This document shows positions 6,621 through 46,100 of a stretch of DNA of 64,000 bases, piece by piece (positions within the stretch are counted from its first letter, which is position 1; every line of letters starts with the position of its first letter). Source of the DNA: Botryllus schlosseri. Its lineage: Eukaryota. The notes beneath the pieces are model-generated. The model was not told where the DNA came from. It saw only the letters and a program-made list of their open reading frames with translations, and searched no databases. Location of the stretch: contig CM119372.1 of the NCBI GenBank assembly GCA_051294905.1, forward strand, positions 27,282,001 through 27,346,000, read 5' to 3'. The position numbers were made by a program, and so were the translations under genes.

Positions 6621-6744
6621 CATACATATCATTGATATGTATGGATTTTTCCACATATTCAGATATCTTCTGTAAATAAGTACTTGAACATATGAAGTTC
6701 TGATTACTTTCGAGGGTAAACCATAAACTAGTAAGTTTACTAAC

Positions 6745-19785: not shown

Positions 19786-22700
19786 GGTGATTACTTCACG
19801 AATGTAATCGATTGCGATTACGATTACTTGTGAATCCAGCGATTACGATTACGATTACAGCAAAATCAGGAAGTAGTCGATTACGATTACATTTCAAAGG
19901 TAATCACGATTACTCACGATTACATTCGATTTGCTTCTTCGAACTAATTTCAGAAGAGATATTGGAAGACAATATAAGACTTGCGATTAAAAGGTCTAAT
20001 GAGAAAACAACTTTATTTATAAACCATAGGTTATTTGCTTGTTACGTCATAATGCACCCATTGCCCAACTCTATACAGGACTATTCGTCGCACCCAACGA
20101 TTTGCATTCTTGCCAGGTCCGTAACTGCCACACCCCACTCTCCCCAATAGGACCAGGAGCGAGCTCTAAGGGGACTCAAAAGTATTTCGTAAATCAACAT
20201 AAATTATTATAGAGTATTTTCAAGAGAGTTAATTAACTTGAAAATTTTCTTCGAGCTTCGGGATTTAATGTCTCTAAATAGCTTGATTTTGAAATGCGTA
20301 CCTCTCCCCCTCAAGAAAAAAAGCATGCATAATTTATAGGAATAGGCATTTCGGTGGCGGTCATTACCCCGCCACGACACACCAAAAGACGTATGCCATT
20401 TCGACAAACATGCAACTCCACAAAGTGTGCTACCAAAGAATGACATTGGCCAAAACTTTGGGTATGTGTCCATTGCCAGTAGCCGGCGTGACGAATAGTC
20501 CGGTCCTTCCAATCTGAGCCCCAACAATGCAAATGCTACCCAAGGCACTCACAGAGGAATGAAGACATGACAATTCGTGTGTGCGTCTCACGAAAGTTTT
20601 TTCTTTTAGTCTGCTACGTTTGGGCGACTACAGTATCTTTTGATTATGTAAAAGACGGGAGGTCACGAATTAACAACATACAATAAAGTAATTACACCAA
20701 CATATCAGATGCTATAATTATGAATTACGTGCCCCCAGCTCTACTGGTAAATCTGAATGACTCGACTCGACTCGAATCCATTTTTGTATGGACTCGACTT
20801 GACTTTATTTCTGTCTCTTGCAAGAATAGACTGTGGCGTATGGTCCGGCTCCAACAGTTATGGCTTAAGTTAACTTAGGTTTGGGCTCATTAGGCCCATT
20901 TACATGGCGGTTTAAGTCAGCTTCGAAGCTGACTCGTCGATCCGACTCTCTCGTATTCGATGAAGAGAAAAAAGCAAACTGCTTAAGTCGAATCGAGCCT
21001 CAAGCTGTCATGGGTGGGTTTACGATGGGTGGTTTACGATCGGCTTGAGTATTCGGCGATTTTCCTTGGCCGGCGTTGGTTTTTGCCGCCCAGGATATTG
21101 GCATCGTAATTCATATTTCTCATCTGTTGGTGAGAAATTGGGCAAACATGGCAAGAAAAGGTGTAGTTACTTTGTAAGTGCTCGCATGTTTACGATGGTA
21201 TACATGTAATACACCAGTACCGGTGTAGCAACCGTGCTCTTTTATGACAGTTTTGTAGCCTTGTTGCTGTCATCAACTACATAAAATGGCGAACAAGGTA
21301 AAGACATTACATCTGTATTTCTACTTCTCAGACTACAGTTCGGAAGATATGTGGATTGTACCGGTGTAACAATTCGACTACGACATGCCGAGTCGCACAT
21401 GTAACCATGCCTATTGTCTAGTTATTGTTTCTGTTTATTGTAATTGTTTATTTGATACCAATAACATTTATGCCATTTGAAACTTACGTTTTAACTAACA
21501 TTCACTCCTTATGATACTTACAAGAGTCATGTTTTTTAATGACAAAATTGGCGAGTCCTGTCCTGTAATATTATTCTTGGTAAGCCAGGTTATCAATACT
21601 GATCCTTCAGTTCAGTAGTTCTCAAACTTTATAGACACGCCCGCTTGATGATAGTGAAAAATTTCGTGCCCCCCCCCCCCTTATTGTCATATGAAAACAT
21701 ATACTATTAAAAAGGGAAACCAGAAGGATTGCAATCCAAACGCATAGTCTAATTGCATGGAAGGTTATCCCTGTTAAGGGACCTCTCAAATACGAAATCC
21801 GGACTATACACACAGCAGTAATGATGAGCTGACATCAAATTGCTGCCATAAAATGGGTTTCTCATGAGTGACATTCTACAAAATGGGTACTGAATGAGCA
21901 TACTCGGCGGGGCTTCGTCGTCGTTCCAAAGCCACTTCGATTCAAATCCCTGCTTGCTAGATTCAAAAGTCATTTTATTCATGGCATATGACATGACCTC
22001 ATATTCAAATATCTTATTTGTCCATTTCTCCACTCTGCACATAAGCTTGACCACTGTAGTTATTGGATTTCACTACGCTTGCGTATTCGACATGATCATT
22101 GATCAGCATCATCAGTATAACCTCAAAAACAATATAGATTCGGCATGCAACTTTACTGGCATTAAAATATTATTATAATGATGCGAAAATATCCTACATT
22201 AATTCTGTTGAATATGAATATAAGTTGGTCCATTATCGGGAATTTCGACAAAATATATACATTGGTATTGTTGTTATAGCGGTCATTTCATGCAGCATTT
22301 CCGTCAATCAACCTCACTTACATTCAAATATGTCAGCTACTGTATTGAATGGAGCATCCATATCGATTTACATGGATACGCGCGCTGACTCACTTCGAAT
22401 TAGTAGTTTATAATTGGCATACCACCAAGATTGGCTGGTTTGTTGAGGTTATTATAACATGCAATTATGCAATTTAACTGCTTAAAAGTGAAAATGTTAG
22501 TTGAATTGAAGTTGAATCGAATTTGGATGATTTGATTTGACCCGAGTCATTTTGAAAATTTGCGTTACTTGAGTCGTGACTGGACTTCCTTCAAAATTTA
22601 ATGACTTGTGACTCGAAGGTAGTAACTTGATCCCGACACTTGTGAAAAATACTACATATTGTTTGGGTTTGAAAATGATCAATCAATCTCGAGTACCTAA

Positions 22701-23502
22701 CAATCCCTTCATTCACAGAACAACCGGTGGTCAAGTTGAAAATGAAAAGCACTGCGTAAAACGCAAGTGAACATTTTCCAAGGTCGCACAGTCTGATTAG
22801 ATACGACGAGAAGAGTGTTATTAACCCCGATGCGAACGTCATAATTTACTAATCTGCTGATGATGACATGGCCATATATTTGTATGAATATTTTTCTGTG
22901 GCTGGTTATTTCCTACATTTATAATATATCATTACCATTGCTCCGTTATCCTCCATCAATTATTATTTTACCTGTCAGTATCTTTGGGGATTCTGTTCAT
23001 CTTCAGAGATTCTGTAGAATTGAGCTTCTAGCATGAAGCTCAATGCTTCTGCTTCTAGAAGCAGAATGCTTCTGCTAACATGCTTTCAAATTTGCACCTC
23101 AGTTAGAAAAAATGTTCAGGAGACACTAGTATTCGCAATGTGCTTTTGTCAGAACCTCTTGCAACGTTCTATTGCTACAGTATCAAACAGAAGCACTCCG
23201 CACAGAGCTCTGACATATCAGTGCATATATATTTAAAACCGTGCCGAAAGTATCATATTTGCATATTGTAAGAGAGTTGAACTATTGAACTAAAGAACTA
23301 TAATCAAGCAAGTGCGCCGAGCCATTCAATAAACTGTAAATAGTGCGTAGGCGTTTAATTTGATAACCCAAAATTTCACGTCCATGCAGTATCATTTCCA
23401 AGTGCAATTTATTTTACGAATTCTACTTTCATACAGAGACAGGGGCATTGTGCAAGATTGGTGAGAATGACAATTTTTATAACTTTTTGGTAGGTTAAAA
23501 TT

Positions 23503-24418
23503 AAGGGATGGTGCAAACCCCTGAAAGGTTCTGGTTCATGTGAACGCGAACCTTTTTAAAAGGTTATGTGAGAACGCGATCGTTAGCTATGACGTCACCT
23601 GGCGTCATATTCCCAATTCCTACCCTACATTTCCGTAAAGTAATATATTAATGTATATGATAACTAGCGACGACTCGGGTCACATTATGCCATAATACTG
23701 AAGTAGTCTACATGCGGACTTTTTAAACGCCACCTAATGTATCCACTGTAACAATCAAATGCTATAAAAATTCCACAAAATCAATATCTTCCGTCGCTTT
23801 GCCAGCAATTTCAAAGAGGACTCGCCTAGACCGGACAGACGTATTTTTAAGAGTGAAACGACGGTTTCTATACTTGTGACAGATATATCAAAAACAATAT
23901 GTACAGTAACCAAAACCCTAATCTGGTATCCAATAAGGATATCGAAACAAGATAGATCTTTTACGCATGATAGATTTTTTACATTAGATATCGATGTATT
24001 CTTTATATCAATTTCGTTGATGTAAATATAAATGATTGGTTATAGTATTTTTCGGTCTTGTTATTGCGTGATTGCGGGAAAAAACTCACAGCAGAGAGTT
24101 ACTAAAGATTCACAAACATAACGCAGAAAATTCCGACCAAACTTTTGAGCAAATAATTTTTTGAAATCGACAAGGAGCATGCACGTTTAGTGCTGAGTTT
24201 CTTTTCATGGTGCCGATGCCTTTCGGAGAGTGGTCCGAAATTGGAAAGCAAAGAATTTCAACAAAAGACAGATCGTTATAATGAAATGAAAAATTGTAAT
24301 ACATGAAAAAGGTTCACCATGCAGAACCTACCAAGGTTCGTTTGCGAACGCTATCCACCAAATTTCCGAGGTTCACACACAGAACGCGAACGCGAACCTC
24401 ACGTTCACAACATCCCTA
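23503..24418. mobile_element. Family A element, diverged copy (mirror 42700-43615)
   Basis: Degenerate TIRs, TSD ttaaaatt/ttaaaaat. Confidence 0.8.
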
Positions 24419-24546
24419 TTAAAAATGTTTTTAAATGGATTTTTCTTGTCAATGGAGGACCAAGCAATACCATCAACGTAAGCGAGGCTCTGCTTACTTG
24501 AAGGGTGAGTTAGGCACGACTATTAGGTGATTATATAGGTAATGCC

Positions 24547-25544
24547 TAGGGATGGTGTGAACGTGAGGTTCACGTTCGCGTTCTGTGTGTGAACCTCAGA
24601 TATTTAGAGGTTCACGTTCACAAAAGAACCTTGGTAGGTTCTGCACTGTGAACCTTTTTCATATATTACAATTTTCACTTCATTATAGCATCTTTGGTTG
24701 AAATTTATTTCATTTCAACTGCGGGCCCGGCATATGCATGGCGCTGGCAGCATAAAAATCAACACCAAACAAGCATGCACCTTGACGATCTCAAACATTT
24801 TACTTGCTTTGTTACAATTGTTTGCTCGAGATATCCAGCTTTCCGTTTGCGAATATTTAGTGACTCATCTCTGCTGTGAGTTTGACCCGCAATCACACAA
24901 CATCAAGAGCGAAACACTACATGTAGGTAGTCAGCGAATGACTCTTATCCAGGGATATCTAGAAGTTCTAGATATCCCTGCTCTTATCCATCCAATCAAC
25001 GAAATTGATATCGTTGTCTGATGTAAAAAATCTAGCAGGCGTACGGCGTCAATCTCGATTTCATATGTTTATTGTATCATGAAAACCAACTCCGTGGATT
25101 GGGGTGTTGGCTACTGCTATAACATGTTAAAGGGGTAATATCGGTAGCAAGTAGGGAAACCCGTTTTACACTCTGCTCAATATCAACTTAGCAATACTCG
25201 GGAGCCGAATACATTGACCGGTCTGACCTTAACCGTTGAGGCGTAAGCTTATATTCACTTGCAAGTTCTCGTCGAAATTGTGGCAAAGCTACTCAAGATA
25301 TTGATTTTCCGGTATGATTATATCAATTGATTGCCCCAGTTGATACATCTGCAGACGTTTAAAACATCAATAGGTATTTCAGCATTGTGGCATTATGTGG
25401 CCCGAATCGTCGCTAGGTATTGCAAGACTATCACTTCACTGAAATGTAGGGTTGAAATTAGCAATATGACGTCACGTGACGTCACGAGGTTCACGTTCGC
25501 GTTCACACAGAACCCGAACCTTTTAGAGGTTCACACCCTCCCTA
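24547..25544. mobile_element. Family A element (mirror 41545-42571)
   Basis: TIRs present, TSD gtaatgcc/gtaattcc. Confidence 0.9.
24950..24980. mobile_element. 31 bp hairpin insertion with 8 bp TSD (mirror 42138-42168)
   Basis: cagggatatctagaa-g-ttctagatatccctg, flanked by ctcttatc on both sides. Absent at the homologous site of other family A copies. Confidence 0.88.
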
Positions 25545-26141
25545 GTAATTCCACCTGATTAAAATTGGTTGGAAGCAACTAGCAACTTAATATTCCTTTA
25601 ACAGTCGGACCAGTCATCGCACGCGAATACGAGCATGAAGACCCAACAATTGCTAATTGCGTCAGTGACGACATCCATTGCAAGCAGCTTCCTAAGGCGT
25701 ATCTGTAAGTAATCTTACATAGGACCACGCCGAATCGAGTACATGACTGATTCCATTTTGGGAAATAAGCCACGAGTCAAATATTTGAGTGTCATTTGTT
25801 ATGAAACCATAACAGTAATACTTGTAGAGTTTCTATTGTGTCCCATTTATGCGATCGCGAAGTATAAGTAATGTAAGTCGGACTTATTTCATAAATATAC
25901 TTTCAATTTGGTAACCGAACTCTGAAATAGCGCTCTGAGAGGACGCCCAAGGTCAAGCCCTATACTTCAAAGAAATGCCGTCTCCAGCGCATGTTATATC
26001 TTGCTCTGTGTGTTTTGAAAGAAATGATACCGACATAAGCAGTGGGGGCTTCTGGGGTGGGCGAGGTGGGCCGTCGCCAGGGGACCCCCCTGGTCGAAGG
26101 GCCCCCCTCTTTGCTTTATGCGATTTTTTCAAGGAATATAG

Positions 26142-27134
26142 TAGGGATGATGTGAACCTCTGAAAGGTTCAGGTTCGTGTGAACGCGAACCTTTTTGAAA
26201 GGTTCTGTGTGAACGCGAACGTGAACCTCATGACGTCACGTGACGTCATATTGCTAATTCCAACTCTATCTTTCAATCAAGTGATAGCCTATATTAATGT
26301 ACACCATACCTAGCGACGACTCGGGCCATGTAATGCCACAACGCTGAAGTACATATTGGCGTTTTAAACGTCGCTAAATGTATCAACTGAGGCAATCAAA
26401 TGATATAATACCCCCATATATCATCCGTCGCTTTGCCAACAATTTCGACGAGGAGTTGCAAGGGAATATAAGCTTGCCCCTTATAACGGTCTTGGCCAGA
26501 CCGGACAATGTATTCGGCGTCTGAGTATTGCTACATTGAGATTGGGCAGAGTGTAAAACAGGTTTCTATACTTGCCAGCGGTATTAGGCTACCCCACAAG
26601 ATATACAGCTGTAGCCAACACCTCAATCGCACGTATTTGGTTTTAATGATACAGTGAACAGATGAAGTCAAGATTAAACCCGTACGCCTGCTAGATTTGT
26701 TACATCAAAAACGATATCCATCTCATTGATTGGTTGAATAAGCATCATTCGCTGACTACATGTAGTGTATGTCGCTCGTGATGTTGTGTGATTGCGGGTT
26801 AAGCTCACAGCAGAGTCACTAAATATCCACAAACGGAAAGCTGGATATTTCGAGCAAACTTTTGTAACAAAGCAAGTAAAATCTTTGAGATTGTCAAGGT
26901 GCATGCTCGTTTTGTTGTTAATTTTTTATGCTGCCAGCGCCATGCATAGAGTTGCCCGCAGTTGAAATGTAATAAATTCGAACCAAAGATGTCATAATGA
27001 AGTGAAAATTGTAATATATGTAAAGAGGTTCACAATGCAGAACCTATCAAGGTTCTGTTGTGAACGCGAACCTCTAAATTTCCGAGGTTCACACACAGAA
27101 CGCGAACGTGAACTTCACGTTCACACCATCCCTA
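26142..27134. mobile_element. Family A element, full length ~1 kb (mirror 39955-40947)
   Basis: TIRs present, perfect TSD gaatatag. Confidence 0.92.
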
Positions 27135-27164
27135 GAATATAGCGAATAAACGGAGAAATCCCAG

Positions 27165-27201
27165 CAGGGATATCTAGAACTAGTAGTTCTAGATATCCCT
27201 G
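27165..27201. mobile_element. 37 bp hairpin insertion with 8 bp TSD (mirror 39888-39924)
   Basis: cagggatatctagaacta-g-tagttctagatatccctg, flanked by aatcccag on both sides. Confidence 0.88.
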
Positions 27202-27331
27202 AATCCCAGTACCAATCAAGAATATGATTCCGTACAGATGGGTCAATCATCATCAAATCTATGCATTTGTTAGAAAAGTCCCATATCCAGATAATCATCA
27301 CGTCTCTGCATGCGTTAGAATTACTCAGTTG

Positions 27332-28543
27332 CAGGGCCGTAACAGCACTTCGTCAGCCCCCCCCACAAAACGTTGGTCTTGGGCCCCCCATATGTTGACG
27401 AACCGAACTTCGGGGGGGGGGTGGGGGCTTCGCCCTCCAGACCCCCTCCTGCTGTTTTCTTATTACCGCTACTTACTTATCCTCCACATTGGAGGCCGTT
27501 TGGTGGGTCAGCTTTTCTCGCCTGAACGCGCCAAGCGCGAAAATTTTCTATAATTCATGATTCAATCGGTCAATATGATCGGGAATTGCATATATGATGC
27601 TATCAATTTTTATCCTCTCTCTGCTCACGTAATCAGATTAACAGGTAGAGCTGAGTGAGGTGTGTTAATTAAACATCTTCGTGCGTATACCCGTTGGCAG
27701 GAATGAAACAGCACTTCGTCAGGCCCCGCAAAAAATCTTGCGTCTGGGGCTCCCATAGGGTGATATACCTACCCACATCACCTTACTCGCTTTTGTCACG
27801 AAATGAATTGTATACTGCTTATTGGGCCAGCACCAAGCGCGAAAATTTTCAAAAATTCATAATAAAATCGGTCAATAAGATCGGGAATTGCATATATATT
27901 GCTATCAACTTCTTATCCTCTCTGCTCACGTAATCAGATTTACCGGTAGAGCTGAGTGAGGTGTCCTGAAAACTGTAGGGGCCGTTGGTATGACTCTTTA
28001 ACATGATGGTATTTCGTGACCTCCTGTCTGCTATATATAAAATATAGAATCGCCATAACGTAGGCTACGAAACTAAAAGACGCACACGATTTCAAATTGG
28101 TATTTCTTCACTGGCATATAATTTTTCCCTGCGGGACGGTAGTGGTCTTGTGAGATTGCCAAGACAGTATTTCGTATATATAACGAAGTTTTCGGTCAGC
28201 ATTGGGTCAGTCCTTTTCGACCAAGGTTTTCTCGCTGACTATCGTTCTGGCACACTTCTTGGAGTCGCATGTTACATGTTATATGTCTTGTTGCACCGTG
28301 GCGCGGTAATGGCCAACGCCAATATGCCCATTTCAATAAATCTTTTTCGTGTGGGAAGAGTACCCCAAAATCAAGACAATTGGCTACATGAAATCGCTTG
28401 TAGCGCGAAAAAAATTGAAAAAGTTGCATAAAGTTTATAAAAATGCTCTATAATTCATGCTAATTCACGAAATAATTTTGGGCCCCCTCGGAGATCGCCC
28501 CCTCCCCAAATTGGGGGTGTGGGGTGCGGCAGTTACGGGCCTG
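27332..28543. mobile_element. CAGGGCCGTAAC-terminated element with internal ~300 bp direct repeats (mirror ~38548-39757)
   Basis: TIR cagggccgtaac / gttacgggcctg, TSD ctcagtt(g/t)/cttagttt. Related sequence occurs at 47100-48330 and 50750-51283. Confidence 0.8.
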
Positions 28544-29226
28544 CTTAGTTTTTATGTAGGCTATCCTTGCACACATGCAATAATAGATATGGGCGAATCC
28601 AACACCTGGCTCAAACCCTTGACGTGGTGAAAGATAGATAATATTAGTAATAGACGCGAAAGGGGGATATGGGGGGCCGAGCCCCCCATAAGTTACGATT
28701 ACATTCTTATAGGGTATCCCCCGGTAAGTCTCGCCCAGGGCCTCCCCATTCGTAAGGCCATCACTGGACATAAGGCTGCAGCTCTACCATGATAGAATGG
28801 GAAGAAAGTGTTGAAACGGGAATTCTCGTTGATACAAAAAGTGACCAGAGGAGTATGATTTCGATAGTCCAAACCATCACTCTTATCGCCCGATTCGAAT
28901 CATGGAAAGTTGAGCTCGATTCAGATTTGAGTACGCTAGTCGTTGTGCCCATCCGTGCCTTGTGCCCCTGCCTTATGCCTCTATAGTAAACAATTCCCTC
29001 CCAATTATATTCGATGAACGGCATGCTGTTGTAACCAAGCAGCAGGCTGCAATTAAGTAGTAATGACGCTACCCTTGATAGTACTGCCCACCGTTTATAA
29101 ACATTTTTATATGTAGATTTTTTGGGACACCGATGTCTGCGTACGCCTAATATCGCTATCATGAGAGATTTCAACTCATTTAGGTTCAATTTTGCACGAA
29201 AATAGGAATATCCCGTTATTAAATGT

Positions 29227-30190
29227 CAGTGTTGGGATGACTCGAGTCATGACTTGACTCGAGTCAGACTCGAGTCACCTTTTTCGTATGACTTGACTTG
29301 ACTCGAGTCACTTTCCTAAAATGACTTGACTTGACTTGACTCGGCGTATCAGAAAGCTGGATTGACTCGTGACTCGAAGCAAAATTCACGAGTCAATTTC
29401 AAGTCATCAAGTAATCGGTGTCAATAAAAATCACTGTATCTTGCATATGTTCGGATTGTTCGCAAAACGCTGGTGTAACCCGTGAGAGCGATCAATCATT
29501 CAATGATCGTGCGTTCTACTGAGCCTCCATTGTTCTCTCACAAACAAATTGACCACAATCGAAGTGATCGAAGCTTACAGCTTGCGTTGTCATAAGTAAA
29601 GTCTAGTATAGCAAAATGTCTGTTTCTGTTCTCTGCTCTTACCTTAACCAAACCTCTTGTTTTATTGAAATTGAATTCGAATTTAGTTTATATAGTCCTC
29701 AACCATTGGCGCAGACTGGAATTGTATCATATCATTTTGTAAATGGGTTATGCATTGCATCTTATCAATTCGTTTCTAAATTCTCTATTTTGACTGGTAA
29801 CTATAAACTGAGGCTATGCAATTGCTTATGTAGTTTAGCAGTTCTAGGTATATGTGACCGATACAGCGCCTTCTTGCGTGAATATTTAACACAATGTTCG
29901 TTCATCGGTTAAAAATCAATGACCACTAAATCTGTATGTCAGAAAGCTAACAAAATGCAATGACGTAATCATGCCTGATACTTCGACAAGGCAACTTGAC
30001 TTGAATTTTGACTTGACTCGTGACTTGACTTGACTTGACTCGACTTGACTCGAGTCACCTTTGAAAATCGAGTGACTTGACTTGACTCGAGTCACCATCG
30101 AAAATGATTGACTTGACTTGACTCGAGTCAAAATGTGCAATGACTCGAAATGACTCGTGACTCGAAGGTAGTGACTTGATCCCAACACTG
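29227..30190. mobile_element. hAT-type element with (GACTT/GACTC)n subterminal arrays (mirror 36911-37864)
   Basis: TIR cagtgttgggat / atcccaacactg, perfect TSD ttaaatgt. Confidence 0.92.
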
Positions 30191-30577
30191 TTAAATGTCA
30201 GTTTCAGGTTTCTCGTAGGCTAGGTTTGGTTTCTACTGAATATCCATAACAGATATTAATCATGGTATCACTGAAATGATGCAAAGGGTCTTATCTTCCC
30301 CTTTGTTCAGACCGACATCCAGTTCCAATTCTTCTGATCGGTGGACATCTTGCGAGACGTGGAATTACGGTTATAAATATTGCTTGATTTCTTAAGTAGG
30401 CCTAATGAAATCCTCTGACTACCTATAAGTCCGTCGTACGAGCATAAAACTCGATCAATAATCATATTGACTGACAATAAATATTATCTAAGATTCTTTT
30501 TTTAAGCTCAGTCTTGCCAATTCATGCCAGGCTCTACTTCGAGAGCAGGCTCGGTTCGTTTTCTCCTGCGTCTAACC

Positions 30578-31647
30578 CAGGGGTTCTCAAAGGGTGGGCC
30601 ATGGCCCACTAGTGGGCCACAGGAGTAATTTTGGTGGGCCACAGAGCTATTTCGAAAATTATAGCATTCATGAAAGTTTGGTTGCATTTTTTTTTGTTCA
30701 TATTAAAAAAATATATTGATGTTATCGAGTTATACGTATGCTGCATAAAGCTTTTCATCCGACTCTGATGAGACTTAGTGGCACGTATGGAGTCATGAAT
30801 GTACAAGTCGAAATGGGAGGGGATACGGCGGCTTTTGTCCCACAAGCTATGACAACCTCCGGCCGGCAGCGACGAAAATAATTTCAATTATATAATAACT
30901 GAAAGTTAATGCTGAAATATCCAAGTATTCCGGCAGGGTCATAATGGATTGAGGAGTTGGCACAGCATATTAATCTTCGGAGTCGGTCTAAAAATGTCCG
31001 GCCTTGAAATCGTTATACATAATGTAAGAGTCACATGAATTGGTGGTATCCTTGGAATTAATGTTATTACATCACAACTTCAAAAGGTACAAGACATATA
31101 CTAGGTAGGCCTACACTGTATTACTAGCGTATTAAAAAAATTTCAACACTTCTCTGTAGTATCCCATTCATCAAAGAATTGTTTAAAGCGGCCCAGAATG
31201 GGTTTAGTATTCCCCATCAGAGTGGAATTAAACCCCTAATCATACAGTGAATGCGGGGATTGGATCATTGGGTTTCGCGACTTGAGTCGAACAGAGGATG
31301 TAGAGTGCACACACGAGTTACACGATATTGCAGGGCCGTAACTTTCGCACCCCTAACCAACAATTGGGAGAGCTCTAAGTTGGTAATAATTATTTCGTTG
31401 GTTGTCTGTTGGAGATTTATGTACCTTGAAATATTTTGTCGCGCTCCGCGCGATTTCATGTTCCCTCGGATCGACATTTAAATATGAACAGTAGCCTAAT
31501 CAAAGAAAAATGCGTACATTTTAGAGGAAAAGCCATATCGGTGGCGATTAGCCTACCACACATTGAAATGACTTTATAAGAGGTGGGCCACAGAACATTT
31601 TCAAACCGGAAAATGGGCCACAGCCAAAAAATGGCTGATAACCCCTG
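30578..31647. mobile_element. hAT/Charlie-like non-autonomous element (mirror 35454-36523)
   Basis: TIR caggggttctca / tgataacccctg, perfect TSD gtctaacc. Confidence 0.88.
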
Positions 31648-32970
31648 GTCTAACCTGTTGCACCAGGTTTATATTGGCAGTTTCGACATTGCTTCCTATG
31701 TAGGCCTATATAGCCTATGTATTTATTTCATTCCATTACATTACATAAAAGGAGATTAGGCCTAGCGAAAAATAGAAAGAAGTTGGTGATTTATAGCTAT
31801 TGCTACGGATGTGTGTATGTATCATACAAATGGACATATGGTTATAGAGTTTCGCAATGCCGTTATTGATGTTTGTCACAAGAGGTCTTTCAGGCGAGAC
31901 AGGGTCATAGGTAGTGGTTCTTCTGTGTCCGTTATCGGACCAGTCTGAATGTTGCCTCGTGTCCTTGCTTTTCACTGGAATACTTTATTATCAAGCATAT
32001 CTACATAATACACGGATCATAGAGTTTCTATTCTAGCAAGTCGCAACGCCTTTATTCGTGAACAATACAATTGGCAAAATACGATTATTGTCTGCTGAAT
32101 ACAGTTAAGAGCCGATAAAACAGTGGCGCTTACGACGATATAAGTTGGCATATTTCCATGCTCCCGCTGCTTTAATCGTAATCTGGCGTTAGCGTAGCGT
32201 ATGCGCTGTGCGACATACAAAATATGAAACTGTAAATCCTAGCATTCATTACAAATGTGCTGGATAAATAGGAATTTTTAAATCTACTCAGAATTGCTTC
32301 GCGGGCCGGATGAAATCGTCTGGCGGGTCGTATGTTTGACACCCCTGCTCTAGCTGTTGCGCAGGTGGTTTTGTACATCCTGGTTTTATATGCCTTTGAC
32401 TCATCTTCCATCTTGTTTTCAATCTCTAGCTTGGTTCTGTGTTTTCTAGCTTTTTCATTGTATATGGTTATAATAAATTTGGTTGCAATAGTACGGCATG
32501 TTACCTGATTATGGTCAATAACTACTTACACTTCGACATAACCACTTCCAAATGCGGGACATGGGTGTTTTGGACGACTGTTCGTTCTACACGGCAAGAA
32601 GCGAGTGGCACCAGCGTCATGACACCAATGGCAGTGGTTCGAATCTCGGTTCGGACCAACTACTATATGAAAAAGCCCAGAAGGAAGATGGGCCCAAGTT
32701 ATGGACGCACGAAAAACGGGAGAGAAGAGTGCGTGAATAGAAGTCGTCCGTAACACGATTGAAAAAGACCTCACCAAGAATTGATGTTACTGAACTTAAT
32801 GTACGGGGCGCAAATGACAACAGAGTTTATAAGCGCAACAGTCATGAATAAAACAAATAAACAAACGAACACGGCAGGATAAAACGTGACCATACAAAAG
32901 ATGTAGCAGATACAACTGTACCAAGGTGCCTTATCGAGACGTGAAGTTGATTCGAGAATGCTCCGCTAAG

Positions 32971-33234: not shown

Positions 33235-33866
33235 AGCACCGGTAAGGTAAATCGTTTCGTATAGTTCGGCAACAGATCATCACCATCGTAAATGTTACCC
33301 ATAGTAAGTAAACATAACATGGTTTGTTTAAATGCGGAATCCGTATGTAATTGCCTGAACATGCCCAGTAAATGATCTGTTACCTACTAGCTATTCCCAG
33401 CTCGCAGTGTTATTTTCGATAGGATACACTTCCATTGGTGACGCACTGTGATTATGAAGTAGGATCCTGCTAACAAGTCGAAGTTTGATTGATTGAATTC
33501 ACGAAGTCGTTTCGACTCCTGCAATTCTTTTTATCGTATCGCAATTCTTGGCGTCTGGCATTTTGCTCCACAATTCAATAATACTCATACTCATAAACAC
33601 TTCTGCCATCGTAAACAGTTTAACTTGTTAGCAGGATCCTACTTCATAATCACAGTGCGTCACCAATGGAAGTGTATCCTATCGAAAATAACACTGCGAG
33701 CTGGGAATAGCTAGTAGGTAACAGATCATTTACTGGGCATGTTCAGGCAATTACATACGGATTCCGCATTTAAACAAACCATGTTATGTTTACTTACTAT
33801 GGGTAACATTTACGATGGTGATGATCTGTTGCCGAACTATACGAAACGATTTACCTTACCGGTGCT

Positions 33867-34130
33867 GTGGCGAGATAGCGCAGTGGTATAATCCGCGGCT
33901 GCAACACCAATGGGTGCGGGTTCGAGTCCGACCGAGGTCGACTTCCGAATTCCGATATCTAAGTGTTGGAGGTTTACCTACGCTCCTCCTCGCCACCTCA
34001 TCCGCGTCAGCGGTGTCTTACAAAAGCCTGGAGGTGGGCCGGCAGTCACGGAAAATAAAAAAGATTATCTGCCTGGTGTAAATGACCATCGTAGTCGACA
34101 AACACCATGAATACCACAAAACAAACAAAC
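33867..34130 (+). mobile_element. tRNA-derived SINE with (AAAC)n tail
   Basis: A box tagcgcagtgg, B box ggttcgagtcc, ctgcaac anticodon-like loop (Cys-like) and (aaac)n tail. Degenerate TSD ccttaccggtgc / ccttagcggagc. Confidence 0.88.
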
Positions 34131-37100
34131 CTTAGCGGAGCATTCTCGAATCAACTTCACGTCTCGATAAGGCACCTTGGTACAGTTGTATCTGCTACAT
34201 CTTTTGTATGGTCACGTTTTATCCTGCCGTGTTCGTTTGTTTATTTGTTTTATTCATGACTGTTGCGCTTATAAACTCTGTTGTCATTTGCGCCCCGTAC
34301 ATTAAGTTCAGTAACATCAATTCTTGGTGAGGTCTTTTTCAATCGTGTTACGGACGACTTCTATTCACGCACTCTTCTCTCCCGTTTTTCGTGCGTCCAT
34401 AACTTGGGCCCATCTTCCTTCTGGGCTTTTTCATATAGTAGTTGGTCCGAACCGAGATTCGAACCACTGCCATTGGTGTCATGACGCTGGTGCCACTCGC
34501 TTCTTGCCGTGTAGAACGAACAGTCGTCCAAAACACCCATGTCCCGCATTTGGAAGTGGTTATGTCGAAGTGTAAGTAGTTATTGACCATAATCAGGTAA
34601 CATGCCGTACTATTGCAACCAAATTTATTATAACCATATACAATGAAAAAGCTAGAAAACACAGAACCAAGCTAGAGATTGAAAACAAGATGGAAGATGA
34701 GTCAAAGGCATATAAAACCAGGATGTACAAAACCACCTGCGCAACAGCTAGAGCAGGGGTGTCAAACATACGACCCGCCAGACGATTTCATCCGGCCCGC
34801 GAAGCAATTCTGAGTAGATTTAAAAATTCCTATTTATCCAGCACATTTGTAATGAATGCTAGGATTTACAGTTTCATATTTTGTATGTCGCACAGCGCAT
34901 ACGCTACGCTAACGCCAGATTACGATTAAAGCAGCGGGAGCATGGAAATATGCCAACTTATATCGTCGTAAGCGCCACTGTTTTATCGGCTCTTAACTGT
35001 ATTCAGCAGACAATAATCGTATTTTGCCAATTGTATTGTTCACGAATAAAGGCGTTGCGACTTGCTAGAATAGAAACTCTATGATCCGTGTATTATGTAG
35101 ATATGCTTGATAATAAAGTATTCCAGTGAAAAGCAAGGACACGAGGCAACATTCAGACTGGTCCGATAACGGACACAGAAGAACCACTACCTATGACCCT
35201 GTCTCGCCTGAAAGACCTCTTGTGACAAACATCAATAACGGCATTGCGAAACTCTATAACCATATGTCCATTTGTATGATACATACACACATCCGTAGCA
35301 ATAGCTATAAATCACCAACTTCTTTCTATTTTTCGCTAGGCCTAATCTCCTTTTATGTAATGTAATGGAATGAAATAAATACATAGGCTATATAGGCCTA
35401 CATAGGAAGCAATGTCGAAACTGCCAATATAAACCTGGTGCAACAGGTTAGACCAGGGGTTATCAGCCATTTTTTGGCTGTGGCCCATTTTCCGGTTTGA
35501 AAATGTTCTGTGGCCCACCTCTTATAAAGTCATTTCAATGTGTGGTAGGCTAATCGCCACCGATATGGCTTTTCCTCTAAAATGTACGCATTTTTCTTTG
35601 ATTAGGCTACTGTTCATATTTAAATGTCGATCCGAGGGAACATGAAATCGCGCGGAGCGCGACAAAATATTTCAAGGTACATAAATCTCCAACAGACAAC
35701 CAACGAAATAATTATTACCAACTTAGAGCTCTCCCAATTGTTGGTTAGGGGTGCGAAAGTTACGGCCCTGCAATATCGTGTAACTCGTGTGTGCACTCTA
35801 CATCCTCTGTTCGACTCAAGTCGCGAAACCCAATGATCCAATCCCCGCATTCACTGTATGATTAGTGGTTTAATTCCACTCTGATGGGGAATACTAAACC
35901 CATTCTGGGCCGCTTTAAACAATTCTTTGATGAATGGGATACTACAGAGAAGTGTTGAAATTTTTTTAATACGCTAGTAATACAGTGTAGGCCTACCTAG
36001 TATATGTCTTGTACCTTTTGAAGTTGTGATGTAATAACATTAATTCCAAGGATACCACCAATTCATGTGACTCTTACATTATGTATAACGATTTCAAGGC
36101 CGGACATTTTTAGACCGACTCCGAAGATTAATATGCTGTGCCAACTCCTCAATCCATTATGACCCTGCCGGAATACTTGGATATTTCAGCATTAACTTTC
36201 AGTTATTATATAATTGAAATTATTTTCGTCGCTGCCGGCCGGAGGTTGTCATAGCTTGTGGGACAAAAGCCGCCGTATCCCCTCCCATTTCGACTTGTAC
36301 ATTCATGACTCCATACGTGCCACTAAGTCTCATCAGAGTCGGATGAAAAGCTTTATGCAGCATACGTATAACTCGATAACATCAATATATTTTTTTAATA
36401 TGAACAAAAAAAAATGCAACCAAACTTTCATGAATGCTATAATTTTCGAAATAGCTCTGTGGCCCACCAAAATTACTCCTGTGGCCCACTAGTGGGCCAT
36501 GGCCCACCCTTTGAGAACCCCTGGGTTAGACGCAGGAGAAAACGAACCGAGCCTGCTCTCGAAGTAGAGCCTGGCATGAATTGGCAAGACTGAGCTTAAA
36601 AAAAGAATCTTAGATAATATTTATTGTCAGTCAATATGATTATTGATCGAGTTTTATGCTCGTACGACGGACTTATAGGTAGTCAGAGGATTTCATTAGG
36701 CCTACTTAAGAAATCAAGCAATATTTATAACCGTAATTCCACGTCTCGCAAGATGTCCACCGATCAGAAGAATTGGAACTGTATGTCGGTCTGAACAAAG
36801 GGGAAGATAAGACCCTTTGCATCATTTCAGTGATACCATGATTAATATCTGTTATGGATATTCAGTAGAAACCAAACCTAGCCTACGAGAAACCTGAAAC
36901 TGACATTTAACAGTGTTGGGATCAAGTCACTACCTTCGAGTCACGAGTCATTTCGAGTCATTGCACATTTTGACTCGAGTCAAGTCAAGTCAATCATTTT
37001 CGATGGTGACTCGAGTCAAGTCAAGTCACTCGATTTTCAAAGGTGACTCGAGTCAAGTCGAGTCAAGTCAAGTCAAGTCACGAGTCAAGTCAAAATTCAA

Positions 37101-40100
37101 GTCAAGTTGCCTTGTCGAAGTATCAGGCATGATTACGTCATTGCATTTTGTTAGCTTTCTGACATACAGATTTAGTGGTCATTGATTTTTAACCGATGAA
37201 CGAACATTGTGTTAAATATTCACGCAAGAAGGCGCTGTATCGGTCACATATACCTAGAACTGCTAAACTACATAAGCAATCAGTTTATAGTTACCAGTCA
37301 AAATAGAGAATTTAGAAACGAATTGATAAGATGCAATGCATAACCCATTTACAAAATGATATGATACAATTCCAGTCTGCGCCAATGGTTGAGGACTATA
37401 TAAACTAAATTCGAATTCAATTTCAATAAAACAAGAGGTTTGGTTAAGGTAAGAGCAGAGAACAGAAACAGACATTTTGCTATACTAGACTTTACTTATG
37501 ACAACGCAAGCTGTAAGCTTCGATCACTTCGATTGTGGTCAATTTGTTTGTGAGAGAACAATGGAGGCTCAGTAGAACGCACGATCATTGAATGATTGAT
37601 CGCTCTCACGGGTTACACCAGCGTTTTGCGAACAATCCGAACATATGCAAGATACAGTGATTTTTATTGACACCGATTACTTGATGACTTGAAATTGACT
37701 CGTGAATTTTGCTTCGAGTCACGAGTCAATCCAGCTTTCTGATACGCCGAGTCAAGTCAAGTCAAGTCATTTTAGGAAAGTGACTCGAGTCAAGTCAAGT
37801 CATACGAAAAAGGTGACTCGAGTCTGACTCGAGTCAAGTCATGACTCGAGTCATCCCAACACTGACATTTAATAACGGGATATTCCTATTTTCGTGCAAA
37901 ATTGAACCTAAATGAGTTGAAATCTCTCATGATAGCGATATTAGGCGTACGCAGACATCGGTGTCCCAAAAAATCTACATATAAAAATGTTTATAAACGG
38001 TGGGCAGTACTATCAAGGGTAGCGTCATTACTACTTAATTGCAGCCTGCTGCTTGGTTACAACAGCATGCCGTTCATCGAATATAATGGGGAGGGAATTG
38101 TTTACTATAGAGGCATAAGGCAGGGGCACAAGGCACGGATGGGCACAACGACTAGCGTACTCAAATCTGAATCGAGCTCAACTTTCCATGATTCGAATCG
38201 GGCGATAAGAGTGATGGTTTGGACTATCGAAATCATACTCCTCTGGTCACTTTTTGTATCAACGAGAATTCCCGTTTCAACACTTTCTTCCCATTCTATC
38301 ATGGTAGAGCTGCAGCCTTATGTCCAGTGATGGCCTTACGAATGGGGAGGCCCTGGGCGAGACTTACCGGGGGATACCCTATAAGAATGTAATCGTAACT
38401 TATGGGGGGCTCGGCCCCCCATATCCCCCTTTCGCGTCTATTACTAATATTATCTATCTTTCACCACGTCAAGGGTTTGAGCCAGGTGTTGGATTCGCCC
38501 ATATCTATTATTGCATGTGTGCAAGGATAGCCTACATAAAAACTAAGCAGGCCCGTAACTGCCGCACCCCACACCCCCAATTTGGGGAGGGGGCGATCTC
38601 CGAGGGGGCCCAAAATTATTTCGTGAATTAGCATGAATTATAGAGCATTTTTATAAACTTTATGCAACTTTTTCAATTTTTTTCGCGCTACAAGCGATTT
38701 CATGTAGCCAATTGTCTTGATTTTGGGGTACTCTTCCCACACGAAAAAGATTTATTGAAATGGGCATATTGGCGTTGGCCATTACCGCGCCACGGTGCAA
38801 CAAGACATATAACATGTAACATGCGACTCCAAGAAGTGTGCCAGAACGATAGTCAGCGAGAAAACCTTGGTCGAAAAGGACTGACCCAATGCTGACCGAA
38901 AACTTCGTTATATATACGAAATACTGTCTTGGCAATCTCACAAGACCACTACCGTCCCGCAGGGAAAAATTATATGCCAGTGAAGAAATACCAATTTGAA
39001 ATCGTGTGCGTCTTTTAGTTTCGTAGCCTACGTTATGGCGATTCTATATTTTATATATAGCAGACAGGAGGTCACGAAATACCATCATGTCAAAGAGTCA
39101 TACCAACGGCCCCTACAGTTTTCAGGACACCTCACTCAGCTCTACCGGTAAATCTGATTACGTGAGCAGAGAGGATAAGAAGTTGATAGCAATATATATG
39201 CAATTCCCGATCTTATTGACCGATTTTATTATGAATTTTTGAAAATTTTCGCGCTTGGTGCTGGCCCAATAAGCAGTATACAATTCATTTCGTGACAAAA
39301 GCGAGTAAGGTGATGTGGGTAGGTATATCACCCTATGGGAGCCCCAGACGCAAGATTTTTTGCGGGGCCTGACGAAGTGCTGTTTCATTCCTGCCAACGG
39401 GTATACGCACGAAGATGTTTAATTAACACACCTCACTCAGCTCTACCTGTTAATCTGATTACGTGAGCAGAGAGAGGATAAAAATTGATAGCATCATATA
39501 TGCAATTCCCGATCATATTGACCGATTGAATCATGAATTATAGAAAATTTTCGCGCTTGGCGCGTTCAGGCGAGAAAAGCTGACCCACCAAACGGCCTCC
39601 AATGTGGAGGATAAGTAAGTAGCGGTAATAAGAAAACAGCAGGAGGGGGTCTGGAGGGCGAAGCCCCCCCCCCCCGAAGTTCGGTTCGTCAACATATGGG
39701 GGGCCCAAGACCAACGTTTTGTGGGGGGGGGGCTGACGAAGTGCTGTTACGGCCCTGAAACTGAGTAATTCTAACGCATGCAGAGACGTGATGATTATCT
39801 GGATATGGGACTTTTCTAACAAATGCATAGATTTGATGATGATTGACCCATCTGTACGGAATCATATTCTTGATTGGTACTGGGATTCAGGGATATCTAG
39901 AACTACTAGTTCTAGATATCCCTGCTGGGATTTCTCCGTTTATTCGCTATATTCTAGGGATGGTGTGAACGTGAAGTTCACGTTCGCGTTCTGTGTGTGA
40001 ACCTCGGAAATTTAGAGGTTCGCGTTCACAACAGAACCTTGATAGGTTCTGCATTGTGAACCTCTTTACATATATTACAATTTTCACTTCATTATGACAT

Positions 40101-43100
40101 CTTTGGTTCGAATTTATTACATTTCAACTGCGGGCAACTCTATGCATGGCGCTGGCAGCATAAAAAATTAACAACAAAACGAGCATGCACCTTGACAATC
40201 TCAAAGATTTTACTTGCTTTGTTACAAAAGTTTGCTCGAAATATCCAGCTTTCCGTTTGTGGATATTTAGTGACTCTGCTGTGAGCTTAACCCGCAATCA
40301 CACAACATCACGAGCGACATACACTACATGTAGTCAGCGAATGATGCTTATTCAACCAATCAATGAGATGGATATCGTTTTTGATGTAACAAATCTAGCA
40401 GGCGTACGGGTTCAATCTTGACTTCATCTGTTCACTGTATCATTAAAACCAAATACGTGCGATTGAGGTGTTGGCTACAGCTGTATATCTTGTGGGGTAG
40501 CCTAATACCGCTGGCAAGTATAGAAACCTGTTTTACACTCTGCCCAATCTCAATGTAGCAATACTCAGACGCCGAATACATTGTCCGGTCTGGCCAAGAC
40601 CGTTATAAGGGGCAAGCTTATATTCCCTTGCAACTCCTCGTCGAAATTGTTGGCAAAGCGACGGATGATATATGGGGGTATTATATCATTTGATTGCCTC
40701 AGTTGATACATTTAGCGACGTTTAAAACGCCAATATGTACTTCAGCGTTGTGGCATTACATGGCCCGAGTCGTCGCTAGGTATGGTGTACATTAATATAG
40801 GCTATCACTTGATTGAAAGATAGAGTTGGAATTAGCAATATGACGTCACGTGACGTCATGAGGTTCACGTTCGCGTTCACACAGAACCTTTCAAAAAGGT
40901 TCGCGTTCACACGAACCTGAACCTTTCAGAGGTTCACATCATCCCTACTATATTCCTTGAAAAAATCGCATAAAGCAAAGAGGGGGGCCCTTCGACCAGG
41001 GGGGTCCCCTGGCGACGGCCCACCTCGCCCACCCCAGAAGCCCCCACTGCTTATGTCGGTATCATTTCTTTCAAAACACACAGAGCAAGATATCACATGC
41101 GCTGGAGACGGCATTTCTTTGAAGTATAGGGCTTGACCTTGGGCGTCCTCTCAGAGCGCTATTTCAGAGTTCGGTTACCAAATTGAAAGTATATTTATGA
41201 AATAAGTCCGACTTACATTACTTATACTTCGCGATTGCATAAATGGGACACAATAGAAACTCTACAAGTATTACTGTTATGGTTTCATAACAAATGACAC
41301 TCAAATATTTGACTCGTGGCTTATTTCCCAAAATGGAATCAGTCATGTACTCGATTCGGCGTGGTCCTATGTAAGATTACTTACAGATACGCCTTAGGAA
41401 GCTGCTTGCAATGGATGTCGTCACTGACGCAATTAGCAATTGTTGGGTCTTCATGCTCGTATTCGCATGCGATGACTGGTCCGACTGTTAAAGGAATATT
41501 AAGTTGCTAGTTGCTTCCAACCAATTTTAATCAGGTGGAATTACTAGGGAGGGTGTGAACCTCTAAAAGGTTCGGGTTCGTGTGAACGCGAACCTTTTTG
41601 AAAGGTTCTGTGTGAACGCGAACGTGAACCTCGTGACGTCATGTGACGTCATATTGCTAATTTCAACCCTACATTTCAGTGAAGTGATAGTCTTGCAATA
41701 CCTAGCGACGATTCGGGCCACATAATGCCACAATGCTGAAATACCTATTGATGTTTTAAACGTCTGCAGATGTATCAACTGGGGCAATCAATTGATATAA
41801 TCATACCGGAAAATCAATATCTTGAGTCGCTTTGCCACAATTTCGACGAGAACTTGCAAGTGAATATAAGCTTACGCCTCAACGGTTAAGGTCAGACCGG
41901 TCAATGTATTCGGCTCCCGAGTATTGCTAAGTTGATATTGAGCAGAGTGTAAAACGGGTTTCCCTACTTGCTACCGATATTACCCCTTTAACATGTTATA
42001 GCAGTAGCCAACACCCCAATCCACGGAGTTGGTTTTCATGATACAATAAACATATGAAATCGAGATTGACGCCGTACGCCTGCTAGATTTTTTACATCAG
42101 ACAACGATATCAATTTCGTTGATTGGATGGATAAGAGCAGGGATATCTAGAACTTCTAGATATCCCTGGATAAGAGTCATTCGCTGACTACCTACATGTA
42201 GTGTTTCGCTCTTGATGTTGTGTGATTGCGGGTCAAACTCACAGCAGAGATGAGTCACTAAATATTCGCAAACGGAAAGCTGGATATCTCGAGCAAACAA
42301 TTGTAACAAAGCAAGTAAAATGTTTGAGATCGTCAAGGTGCATGCTTGTTTGGTGTTGATTTTTATGCTGCCAGCGCCATGCATATGCCGGGCCCGCAGT
42401 TGAAATGAAATAAATTTCAACCAAAGATGCTATAATGAAGTGAAAATTGTAATATATGAAAAAGGTTCACAGTGCAGAACCTACCAAGGTTCTTTTGTGA
42501 ACGTGAACCTCTAAATATCTGAGGTTCACACACAGAACGCGAACGTGAACCTCACGTTCACACCATCCCTAGGCATTACCTATATAATCACCTAATAGTC
42601 GTGCCTAACTCACCCTTCAAGTAAGCAGAGCCTCGCTTACGTTGATGGTATTGCTTGGTCCTCCATTGACAAGAAAAATCCATTTAAAAACATTTTTAAT
42701 AGGGATGTTGTGAACGTGAGGTTCGCGTTCGCGTTCTGTGTGTGAACCTCGGAAATTTGGTGGATAGCGTTCGCAAACGAACCTTGGTAGGTTCTGCATG
42801 GTGAACCTTTTTCATGTATTACAATTTTTCATTTCATTATAACGATCTGTCTTTTGTTGAAATTCTTTGCTTTCCAATTTCGGACCACTCTCCGAAAGGC
42901 ATCGGCACCATGAAAAGAAACTCAGCACTAAACGTGCATGCTCCTTGTCGATTTCAAAAAATTATTTGCTCAAAAGTTTGGTCGGAATTTTCTGCGTTAT
43001 GTTTGTGAATCTTTAGTAACTCTCTGCTGTGAGTTTTTTCCCGCAATCACGCAATAACAAGACCGAAAAATACTATAACCAATCATTTATATTTACATCA

Positions 43101-46100
43101 ACGAAATTGATATAAAGAATACATCGATATCTAATGTAAAAAATCTATCATGCGTAAAAGATCTATCTTGTTTCGATATCCTTATTGGATACCAGATTAG
43201 GGTTTTGGTTACTGTACATATTGTTTTTGATATATCTGTCACAAGTATAGAAACCGTCGTTTCACTCTTAAAAATACGTCTGTCCGGTCTAGGCGAGTCC
43301 TCTTTGAAATTGCTGGCAAAGCGACGGAAGATATTGATTTTGTGGAATTTTTATAGCATTTGATTGTTACAGTGGATACATTAGGTGGCGTTTAAAAAGT
43401 CCGCATGTAGACTACTTCAGTATTATGGCATAATGTGACCCGAGTCGTCGCTAGTTATCATATACATTAATATATTACTTTACGGAAATGTAGGGTAGGA
43501 ATTGGGAATATGACGCCAGGTGACGTCATAGCTAACGATCGCGTTCTCACATAACCTTTTAAAAAGGTTCGCGTTCACATGAACCAGAACCTTTCAGGGG
43601 TTTGCACCATCCCTTAATTTTAACCTACCAAAAAGTTATAAAAATTGTCATTCTCACCAATCTTGCACAATGCCCCTGTCTCTGTATGAAAGTAGAATTC
43701 GTAAAATAAATTGCACTTGGAAATGATACTGCATGGACGTGAAATTTTGGGTTATCAAATTAAACGCCTACGCACTATTTACAGTTTATTGAATGGCTCG
43801 GCGCACTTGCTTGATTATAGTTCTTTAGTTCAATAGTTCAACTCTCTTACAATATGCAAATATGATACTTTCGGCACGGTTTTAAATATATATGCACTGA
43901 TATGTCAGAGCTCTGTGCGGAGTGCTTCTGTTTGATACTGTAGCAATAGAACGTTGCAAGAGGTTCTGACAAAAGCACATTGCGAATACTAGTGTCCCCT
44001 GAACATTTTTTCTAACTGAGGTGCAAATTTGAAAGCATGTTAGCAGAAGCATTCTGCTTCTAGAAGCAGAAGCATTGAGCTTCATGCTAGAAGCTCAATT
44101 CTACAGAATCTCTGAAGATGAACAGAATCCCCAAAGATACTGACAGGTAAAATAATAATTGATGGAGGATAACGGAGCAATGGTAATGATATATGATAAA
44201 TGTAGGAAATAACCAGCCACAGAAAAATATTCATACAAATATATGGCCATGTCATCATCAGCAGATTAGTAAATTATGACGTTCGCATCGGGGTTAATAA
44301 CACTCTTCTCGTCGTATCTAATCAGACTGTGCGACCTTGGAAAATGTTCACTTGCGTTTTACGCAGTGCTTTTCATTTTCAACTTGACCACCGGTTGTTC
44401 TGTGAATGAAGGGATTGTTAGGTACTCGAGATTGATTGATCATTTTCAAACCCAAACAATATGTAGTATTTTTCACAAGTGTCGGGATCAAGTTACTACC
44501 TTCGAGTCACAAGTCATTAAATTTTGAAGGAAGTCCAGTCACGACTCAAGTAACGCAAATTTTCAAAATGACTCGGGTCAAATCAAATCATCCAAATTCG
44601 ATTCAACTTCAATTCAACTAACATTTTCACTTTTAAGCAGTTAAATTGCATAATTGCATGTTATAATAACCTCAACAAACCAGCCAATCTTGGTGGTATG
44701 CCAATTATAAACTACTAATTCGAAGTGAGTCAGCGCGCGTATCCATGTAAATCGATATGGATGCTCCATTCAATACAGTAGCTGACATATTTGAATGTAA
44801 GTGAGGTTGATTGACGGAAATGCTGCATGAAATGACCGCTATAACAACAATACCAATGTATATATTTTGTCGAAATTCCCGATAATGGACCAACCTATAT
44901 TCTTATTCAACAGAATTAATGTAGGATATTTTCGCATCATTATAATAATATTTTAATGCCAGTAAAGTTGCATGCCGAATCTATATTGTTTTTGAGGTTA
45001 TACTGATGATGCTGATCAATGATCATGTCGAATACGCAAGCGTAGTGAAATCCAATAACTACAGTGGTCAAGCTTATGTGCAGAGTGGAGAAATGGACAA
45101 ATAAGATATTTGAATATGAGGTCATGTCATATGCCATGAATAAAATGACTTTTGAATCTAGCAAGCAGGGATTTGAATCGAAGTGGCTTTGGAACGACGA
45201 CGAAGCCCCGCCGAGTATGCTCATTCGCGCGCCCACAGTTGTGTCACTGTTGGTAACATATAACGAGATCACCCGTCGAATATAATCACTGTGAATTCGA
45301 ATCCAATATTCTGCAGGACATGACTATTCTTTGATTCCTTGAATCGTGGGATGCTAAATCCTCACACAAATCACGTGCAACTTCAACAGCACAAAATTTT
45401 CCTATACTCTAATAAGGTAAAGTAAACGGATGTGTAGCACGACCACCGGTTTGTATATGACTTGATCCGCCAATAAATAAAACTTTTCGGTCGCATGAAC
45501 GCGGATATCACTGACTACAGTTATCTACGAAAGCAGGAAAAGAATGTCCTTATGGAATATATTCACATCTTATTTGTACAATGTGCTATCATGATCCATA
45601 CCTTCGCATTTCATTCCATGGCTCAGCTGTTCTTGAAGATGTGAGCATGCACAACAAAAGCAAGCATTAACTCTTAAGCATTTGAGTTAAATTTAGTTTC
45701 AGGGTTTTAAGCTCATATGCTAAAGTGCTGCTTGCTCAACATTAGTTTTTCATTGTATCGCAGGGCAAATGTCGGTCAACTGCTCCATACTAAAATTCGA
45801 TACTGAAAGTGCTGAATGCAACTGTCGCTTTGCATAGATCTGCAGACGCAGACAAATGTCCAATTCATATTTCGAAATGCAATTTCACTCTTCTAGTGAA
45901 TAGCTATATTGTTTTCGACTATGTAGATTCGGATATGATAGTCGCATTGGGTTACTCTGTTACTGCGTTATAACACAGCTTCATGATATCTCTCTATATC
46001 GAGAAATCTATCATTATCTTGTTTAGAGTGGTCTTTCCTGCTCCCTGCGATGCAGCAACTGACAGAATGTTTAAATTCAATGGATTAAGATCAACGATGT

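Follow-up and report, generated by a model that had tools for sequence, protein, structure and literature searches.

A long palindrome of Botryllus schlosseri that may be a young fold-back inverted duplication, and a second palindrome near it

Fold-back priming at double-strand breaks is established in yeast (PMC10622511), where one end can be extended by fold-back synthesis and the other captured by end joining (PMC11724301). In human tumours, reciprocal foldbacks, which are assigned to breakage-replication-fusion, were reported as 23 instances in 2,588 cancers (PMC12807874). Origin-dependent inverted-repeat amplification (ODIRA) in yeast has spacers of 40-80 bp, and long palindromes with short spacers are reportedly rare in natural genomes (PMC10766186). 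Large palindromic duplications have been described in a tunicate assembly, where they were judged real after depth and long-read checks (PMC12448946). Here we analyse 64,000 nucleotides of the tunicate Botryllus schlosseri (assembly GCA_051294905.1, contig CM119372.1, positions 27,282,001 to 27,346,000 of the forward strand), hereafter called the window. It contains a 23.3-kb palindrome (P1), which is best explained, on balance, as a fold-back inverted duplication that is young, confined to a single locus and devoid of a product, and a second palindrome (P2) that had gone unseen.

P1 resembles the yeast fold-backs in its long near-identical arms, its short single-copy spacer and the lack of transposon ends (PMC10622511, PMC11724301). 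However, the yeast events, as these sources describe them, were induced and consist of 5-34 bp duplications or of dicentrics that are later resolved, whereas P1 has arms of 11.6 kb, is interstitial, carries 19 arm differences and shows no visible priming repeat. P1 and P2 together recall the reciprocal foldbacks, in which one break yields two fold-back junctions, one per end (PMC12807874). The cancer cases are somatic junction pairs, and equal, joined arms of 11 kb were not found described in the available text of that source; unlike in those cases, we solely infer that P1 and P2 stem from one break. The ODIRA triplication likewise has an inverted segment enclosed by two palindromic junctions with short spacers, but here each outer copy spans only half the length of the centre, and the join at the mid-point appears to be new rather than ancestral (PMC10766186). 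The palindromes maintained by conversion on mammalian X and Y chromosomes share an arm identity above 99% (PMC8600007, PMC8981503). In contrast to them, P1 is far smaller and gene-free, appears to be absent from a second sample and shows no significant conversion signal. The palindromes of the tunicate assembly, as reported, are blocks of dozens of genes found by gene synteny, whereas P1 and P2 are 23-kb, nucleotide-exact structures (PMC12448946). A limited literature search in open-access papers found no abutting palindrome pair with equal arms, and no fitting paper on palindromic non-autonomous Mavericks in tunicates.

Self-BLAST of the window returns P1 as one inverted match, 21892-45226, which the arm alignment divides as follows.

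21892..33478, plus strand: P1 left arm (X), 11,587 bp, about 44% of it repeat with other copies in the window
33479..33622: P1 spacer (S), 144 bp, with no second copy in the window
33623..45226, minus strand: P1 right arm (X'), 11,604 bp

P1 thus shows what characterises a fold-back duplication, a short single-copy spacer between inverted arms that are nearly identical. An earlier note on this DNA had given the same arm lengths, spacer and coordinates, which the alignment reproduces exactly; its count of three indels has to be raised to four (29, 2, 4 and 10 bp). The 15 substitutions (7 transitions, 8 transversions) amount to 0.13% of 11,573 aligned bases, and two of the 19 differences lie inside homopolymer runs. 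A chance origin of an 11.6-kb match at 99.9% identity is excluded. Since no indel exceeds 29 bp, every nested transposon is common to both arms, as had been noticed before.

The arm differences are compatible with a uniform spread (Kolmogorov-Smirnov p=0.12). The longest identical run, 2,243 bp, is also the innermost (p=0.31 as longest, p=0.016 as innermost), which is a weak hint of conversion. Within-window paralogues are available for four of the 15 substitution sites and polarise three of them, 25476 being ambiguous: the left arm is derived at 25290 and 26676, the right arm at 28000 (one paralogue). Paralogue comparison also confines the 29-bp loss to the left arm. Derived states are therefore present in both arms.

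The ends of P1 do not look like those of a mobile element. Neither outer breakpoint lies in a repeat with other copies in the window, no direct repeat of 5-12 bp was found within 6 bp of either end, and the ends carry no Maverick-type motif (AGTAGT/ACTACT or AGAGAG/CTCTCT). The outer arm end has the depth of a single locus (43.8 in the bin 44762-45427, versus 10^4-10^5 over true repeats). The AGTAGT-type ends, the 6-bp target duplication and the many dispersed copies of a Maverick/Polinton-ended element are thus all missing from P1. A 29-base arm-end pattern had no match in metagenome contigs. The repeat comparison and the end scan bear out the view of the earlier note that the outer breakpoints are non-repetitive and without target duplication.

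Our analysis also revealed P2, which the earlier note had missed. Its right arm runs off the window, and contig data discussed below bear on where its left arm may begin.

49499..56742, plus strand: P2 left arm, the part with a mirror inside the window; arm alignment
56743..56764: P2 spacer, 22 bp
56765..64000, minus strand: P2 right arm, cut by the window edge
45227..49498: segment between P1 and visible P2, which contig depth suggests to be the outer P2 left arm, with its mirror beyond the window
45223..45226: candidate microhomology, ATTC, the last 4 bp of the P1 right arm, where the contig of the next segment in sample S1 starts

The P2 arms measure at least 7.24 kb, from at least 49499 to the window end, and six substitutions and a single indel of 8 bp separate the visible parts over 7.24 kb (99.9% identity). 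The midpoint between the centres of P1 and P2 is 45152, 75 bp from the end of P1. If P2 starts at about 45223, its arm would be 11.52 kb long, versus 11.60 kb for P1. The evidence is evenly balanced on whether P2 abuts P1.

Public contigs allow us to ask whether both P1 arms exist. Four of the 24 listed public runs were compared with 33440-53400, and the word share of 43700-53400 was 76-80% in four runs of sample S1 and 48% in one run of sample S2. The eight S1 records listed (run X1) show no difference from the window; S1 therefore carries the window haplotype and is possibly the sample that was assembled. The right-arm alleles at 38088, 43997 and 44195 occur in three arm records, and at 36782 all four contigs have the left-arm allele. 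A record ends at 44894, one base short of an arm difference (chance 1-2%, with six in-arm ends), another starts at 45223, 4 bp inside the end of the P1 right arm, and a contig with an alternative spacer allele ends at 33479, the first spacer base. Read as branch points, these contig ends point to the presence of both arms and both joins in the S1 reads.

The alternative spacer allele (four listed differences) continues into the right arm, so the join of left arm and spacer looks like the new one, and probably is. Sample S1 also holds diverged alleles at the spacer, 34326 and 52072, and the second haplotype is thus neither of the P1 arms. The window spacer allele has a depth of 5.8 versus 17-20 in the arm contigs, about one third; a spacer-to-arm ratio of 1:2 or less is expected for a real palindrome and 1:1 for a single arm. 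Run X11, which has a small word share, gave pieces of 90-92% at depths of 2-12 and no junction. Taken together, we hold the P1 palindrome to be probably real.

Sample S2 (run X5) gives a different picture. In four arm records, 55 of 2,049 bases differ from the window (2.7%), about 20 times the arm-to-arm value of 0.13%, and the P1 arms are therefore not ordinary alleles. One of the S2 records (record 20) fits the arm up to 45225 and then continues for 248 letters that fail to match the next window segment; the join at 45226 thus looks new. The S2 spacer has a depth of 117, against 83-88 in three of the four arm records and 33 in the fourth. With the run-on at 45225 and a spacer no shallower than the arm, S2 seems to hold the single-arm ancestral allele, and the duplication consequently looks young. 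The earlier proposal of a recent inverted duplication rather than a classical foldback transposon gains from these data, along with the missing target duplication and the low depth at the outer end.

At 45407-45857 and 51608-52032, S2 shows two forms, one at most about 2% and the other 8-9% from the window, which reflect either very high polymorphism or close paralogues.

How could a fold-back duplication have produced P1? A broken or stalled DNA end would switch strands over a distance of about 144 bp, and 11.6 kb would then be copied backwards. The new end would be captured by end joining through a 4-bp overlap, which would avoid a dicentric chromosome. The captured DNA may have been the outer end of P2, giving the order A-X-S-X'|Y'-T-Y-C. 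In a further step of conjecture, P1 and P2 would descend from the two ends of a single germ-line break, both of which folded back, were extended by similar lengths and were joined together. Such a twin palindrome of about 46 kb, its arms 11.60 and 11.52 kb long and its halves joined through 4 bp, is a tentative proposal that we consider rather less probable than a fold-back origin of P1.

Several observations weigh against the fold-back account or its extension to P2. Sequence inspection found no short inverted repeat at either centre that could prime a fold-back. A simple fold-back of the left end leaves the spacer continuous with the left arm, and a later flip or a cross-fork switch is therefore needed. 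The near-equal arm lengths of P1 and P2 could be coincidence, and the outer ends of P2 lie outside the window. Run X1 may come from the assembled sample and would then not be independent. Among the records listed, none crosses the join of left arm and spacer or the join at 45226. In the ancestral reading, the 248-letter run-on in S2 is presumed to be the left flank. The most direct objection comes from depth: the X1 arm contigs (18, 20.1 and 17.3) are not doubled over the adjoining DNA (17, 18 and 18), which at face value means one arm, and the contigs with alternative alleles (13.6, 14.8 and 18.3) exceed the prediction from a unit of about 9, contig depth not being equal to copy number.

The flat depth has an explanation if P2 begins where P1 ends. 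One X1 record (49107-49771, depth 18) runs unbroken over 49499, where the P2 mirror is certain, so a depth of 18 there stands for two copies, provided that P2 is real. The depth of 17 at 45223-46515, a contig without a difference in 1,293 bp, would therefore stand for two copies as well. A P2 left arm starting at about 45223 would thus make the flank two-copy, as the arms are. The second copy is unlikely to stem from an identical second haplotype, because a stretch of 2,365 bp free of differences has a probability below 1% even at 0.2% heterozygosity; the word share implies 1.6-2% heterozygosity if half of the variant words are dropped.

Two rivals of the fold-back duplication survive best, although we regard both as unlikely. 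According to the first, the locus is a remnant of an ODIRA-type event: an ancestral 23.1-kb segment between the centres was capped at both ends by strand switches, copied as an inverted dimer and re-inserted, and the outer copies were trimmed or a circle was cut once near the middle. The centres with 144- and 22-bp spacers, the alternating orientation and the intact inverted segment between them correspond to the ODIRA layout (PMC10766186), and with diverging forks the two centres would be about equally far from an origin near 45152. However, an ODIRA centre is flanked by two full direct copies, whereas the left copy stops at 21892, after half of the 23.1-kb segment. A full triplication would also leave a mirror of 45227-56742 at 10.3-21.9 kb, which self-BLAST did not find, and the centres have no inverted repeat of 5-6 bp. 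Moreover, the join at 45226 would have to be ancestral, and the S2 record departs from the window at 45225.

The second is an artefact of library or assembly. Here, fold-back reads would have led to one arm being written twice, or head-to-head joining would have fused two near-identical haplotypes. Artefacts of fold-back reads are known from the literature (PMC12870357, PMC6218980), adjacent palindromes with near-equal arms may reflect a read-length effect, and the X1 depth is flat over arms and flank. Yet differences outside homopolymers are present in both arms, the spacer has a third of the arm depth, and contigs end at an arm difference and at both junctions. The diverged S1 alleles show that the second haplotype is not an arm, and the artefact would also require another false join, at 45226, leading to unrelated DNA. 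The joining of two haplotypes, which the earlier note had named as the finding that would overturn its reading, is accordingly unlikely, yet the arm depth is not twice the flank depth.

Compared with these, an old, species-wide palindrome homogenised by arm-to-arm gene conversion, like those of mammalian sex chromosomes, appears improbable. The position of the identical innermost 2,243 bp speaks for it, and the S1 spacer contig that ends at 33479 is also readable as sharing the join. The pattern of differences, however, does not depart from uniform overall, the scanned frames of the P1 arms contain no Pfam-supported gene to preserve, and S2, a single second sample, has neither a branch at 45225 nor a halved spacer depth. 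The earlier note had offered this history as an option, and it finds little support here, since S2 lacks the arm-to-flank junction at 45226. Finally, a mobile palindrome (a Maverick-ended satellite or foldback element) or a duplication driven by transposon ends is very improbable and largely refuted, as target duplication and Maverick end motif are lacking, the outer-end depth is far below that of true repeats and the breakpoints lie away from transposon ends.

Taken by itself, P1 is an unremarkable structural variant, without genes and of a type already known. Two side-by-side palindromes, old enough to diverge, are worth recording given the stated rarity of such structures in nature. If the two were indeed twins from one break, they would be a natural, inherited case of a repair outcome that we found described only in tumours and yeast. 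The locus would then represent a reciprocal fold-back of symmetric form, and the length of its arms would show how far resection or fork travel had gone. Its junctions could be typed by polymerase chain reaction across the population, and it could be tested whether this animal treats hairpin ends differently.

According to a review (PMC7999016), fork stalling in eukaryotic cells disappeared with a spacer of 52 bp, and repeats of 6 kb separated by 280 bp were stable in wild-type yeast. In view of these published short-spacer effects, the 144-bp spacer of P1 should damp hairpins and cruciforms, and the cruciform extrusion envisaged by the earlier note is doubtful. The spacer probably lets P1 persist. 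Predicted folding of the P1 and P2 spacers is weak or absent (-10 and 0 kcal/mol, computed without a shuffle control). The 22-bp spacer of P2 would be a likelier fragile site than that of P1.

The coding capacity of the region was assessed with Pfam on 108 stop-free frames, namely 103 from 20.7-33.6 kb (at least 38 aa, less than 40% repeat) and five others; of the 130 frames listed for 6.7-17 kb, three were covered. No Pfam family exceeded its curated cut-off in the scanned P1 arm frames, and five matches at E 0.004-0.05 and one below cut-off were rejected as noise. Rfam had no match in the window. The frames across the P1 outer junctions gave no Pfam match, and the one at the left junction also had neither an Atlas match nor a homologue; gene continuity is therefore uninformative on which junction is old. 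No function is indicated for P1.

At least four miniature inverted-repeat transposable elements (MITEs) with inverted ends and 8-bp target duplications reside in the P1 arms, together with an element resembling a short interspersed nuclear element (SINE).

24546..25546: MITE with inverted ends; its 8-bp target duplication is degenerate, and 29 bp are missing from the left-arm copy
26144..27135: another member of that MITE family; its 8-bp target duplication is perfect
29229..30190: MITE bounded by inverted ends, with a target duplication of 8 bp
30578..31649: MITE, likewise with inverted ends and an 8-bp target duplication
32971..33234, minus strand: SINE-like element, mirrored at 33867-34130, both copies pointing away from the P1 centre

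We take the MITE at 26144..27135 to be hAT-like, and the SINE-like element is presumably tRNA-like, judging from the appearance of its A and B boxes. In one RNA-seq run (about 6% of it read, from another sample), repeat-poor bins of the arm received almost no reads: those of 44096-46093 had none and 43430-44095 had 0.2-0.3; as that sample may lack the palindrome, this is weak evidence on transcription of P1. No RNA run figured among the listed runs that share words with the region, which speaks neither for nor against transcription. Among the matching RNA reads, 98% run into other sequence and hence come mostly from other repeat copies. Sixty reads have a loose end at 33867, the first base of the SINE-like element, with letters that resemble a template-switch adaptor. 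The read ends at this position indicate that, at some place in the genome, transcription of the SINE-like family starts at the element's own 5' end.

P2 and the segment before it contain exons which point to a receptor gene of the G-protein-coupled receptor (GPCR) type.

48825..55229, minus strand: exons of a rhodopsin-type GPCR-like gene, mirrored at 58278-62077 (plus strand), the copies being head-to-head

All exons except the last are mirrored within the visible P2 right arm. We presume them to correspond to transmembrane segments (TM2, TM3, TM4, TM6 and TM7-like), judging from GPCR motifs; Atlas leads were 0.85-0.88, and among 111 frames from 45-56.8 kb, 7tm_1 at E=0.049 was the sole plausible Pfam match. 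One exon is split by a SINE-like insertion (~53426-53708) with an 11-bp target duplication, so that both copies are probably broken and the gene is probably a pseudogene. The copies differ at 51462 and 51467, 5 bp apart, with two residue changes.

Outside P1, a small, secreted C-type lectin gene lies on the plus strand (10790-10861 and 13343-13534), with a first exon resembling a signal peptide and a Lectin_C exon (Pfam E=3e-8), the single real Pfam match among the 108 frames. Its intron houses a MITE with an 8-bp target duplication (11033-11858). In the left flank there is one 81-bp look-alike of the lectin region, and none spans the junction. The lectin exon and two GPCR exons, used as queries for homologues, gave one HMMER match, P0001, which was rejected as a repetitive spurious protein, and no other.

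The left part of the window further contains an 80-bp tandem repeat in 16 copies (5353-6621), preceded 1.1 kb upstream by a short second array (4046-4254) that is split by another element. An A+C-rich minisatellite with 24- and 41-bp units (18299-19776) sits inside a stack of nested elements, the halves of which are mirrored around it (16209-18139 versus 19777-20749).

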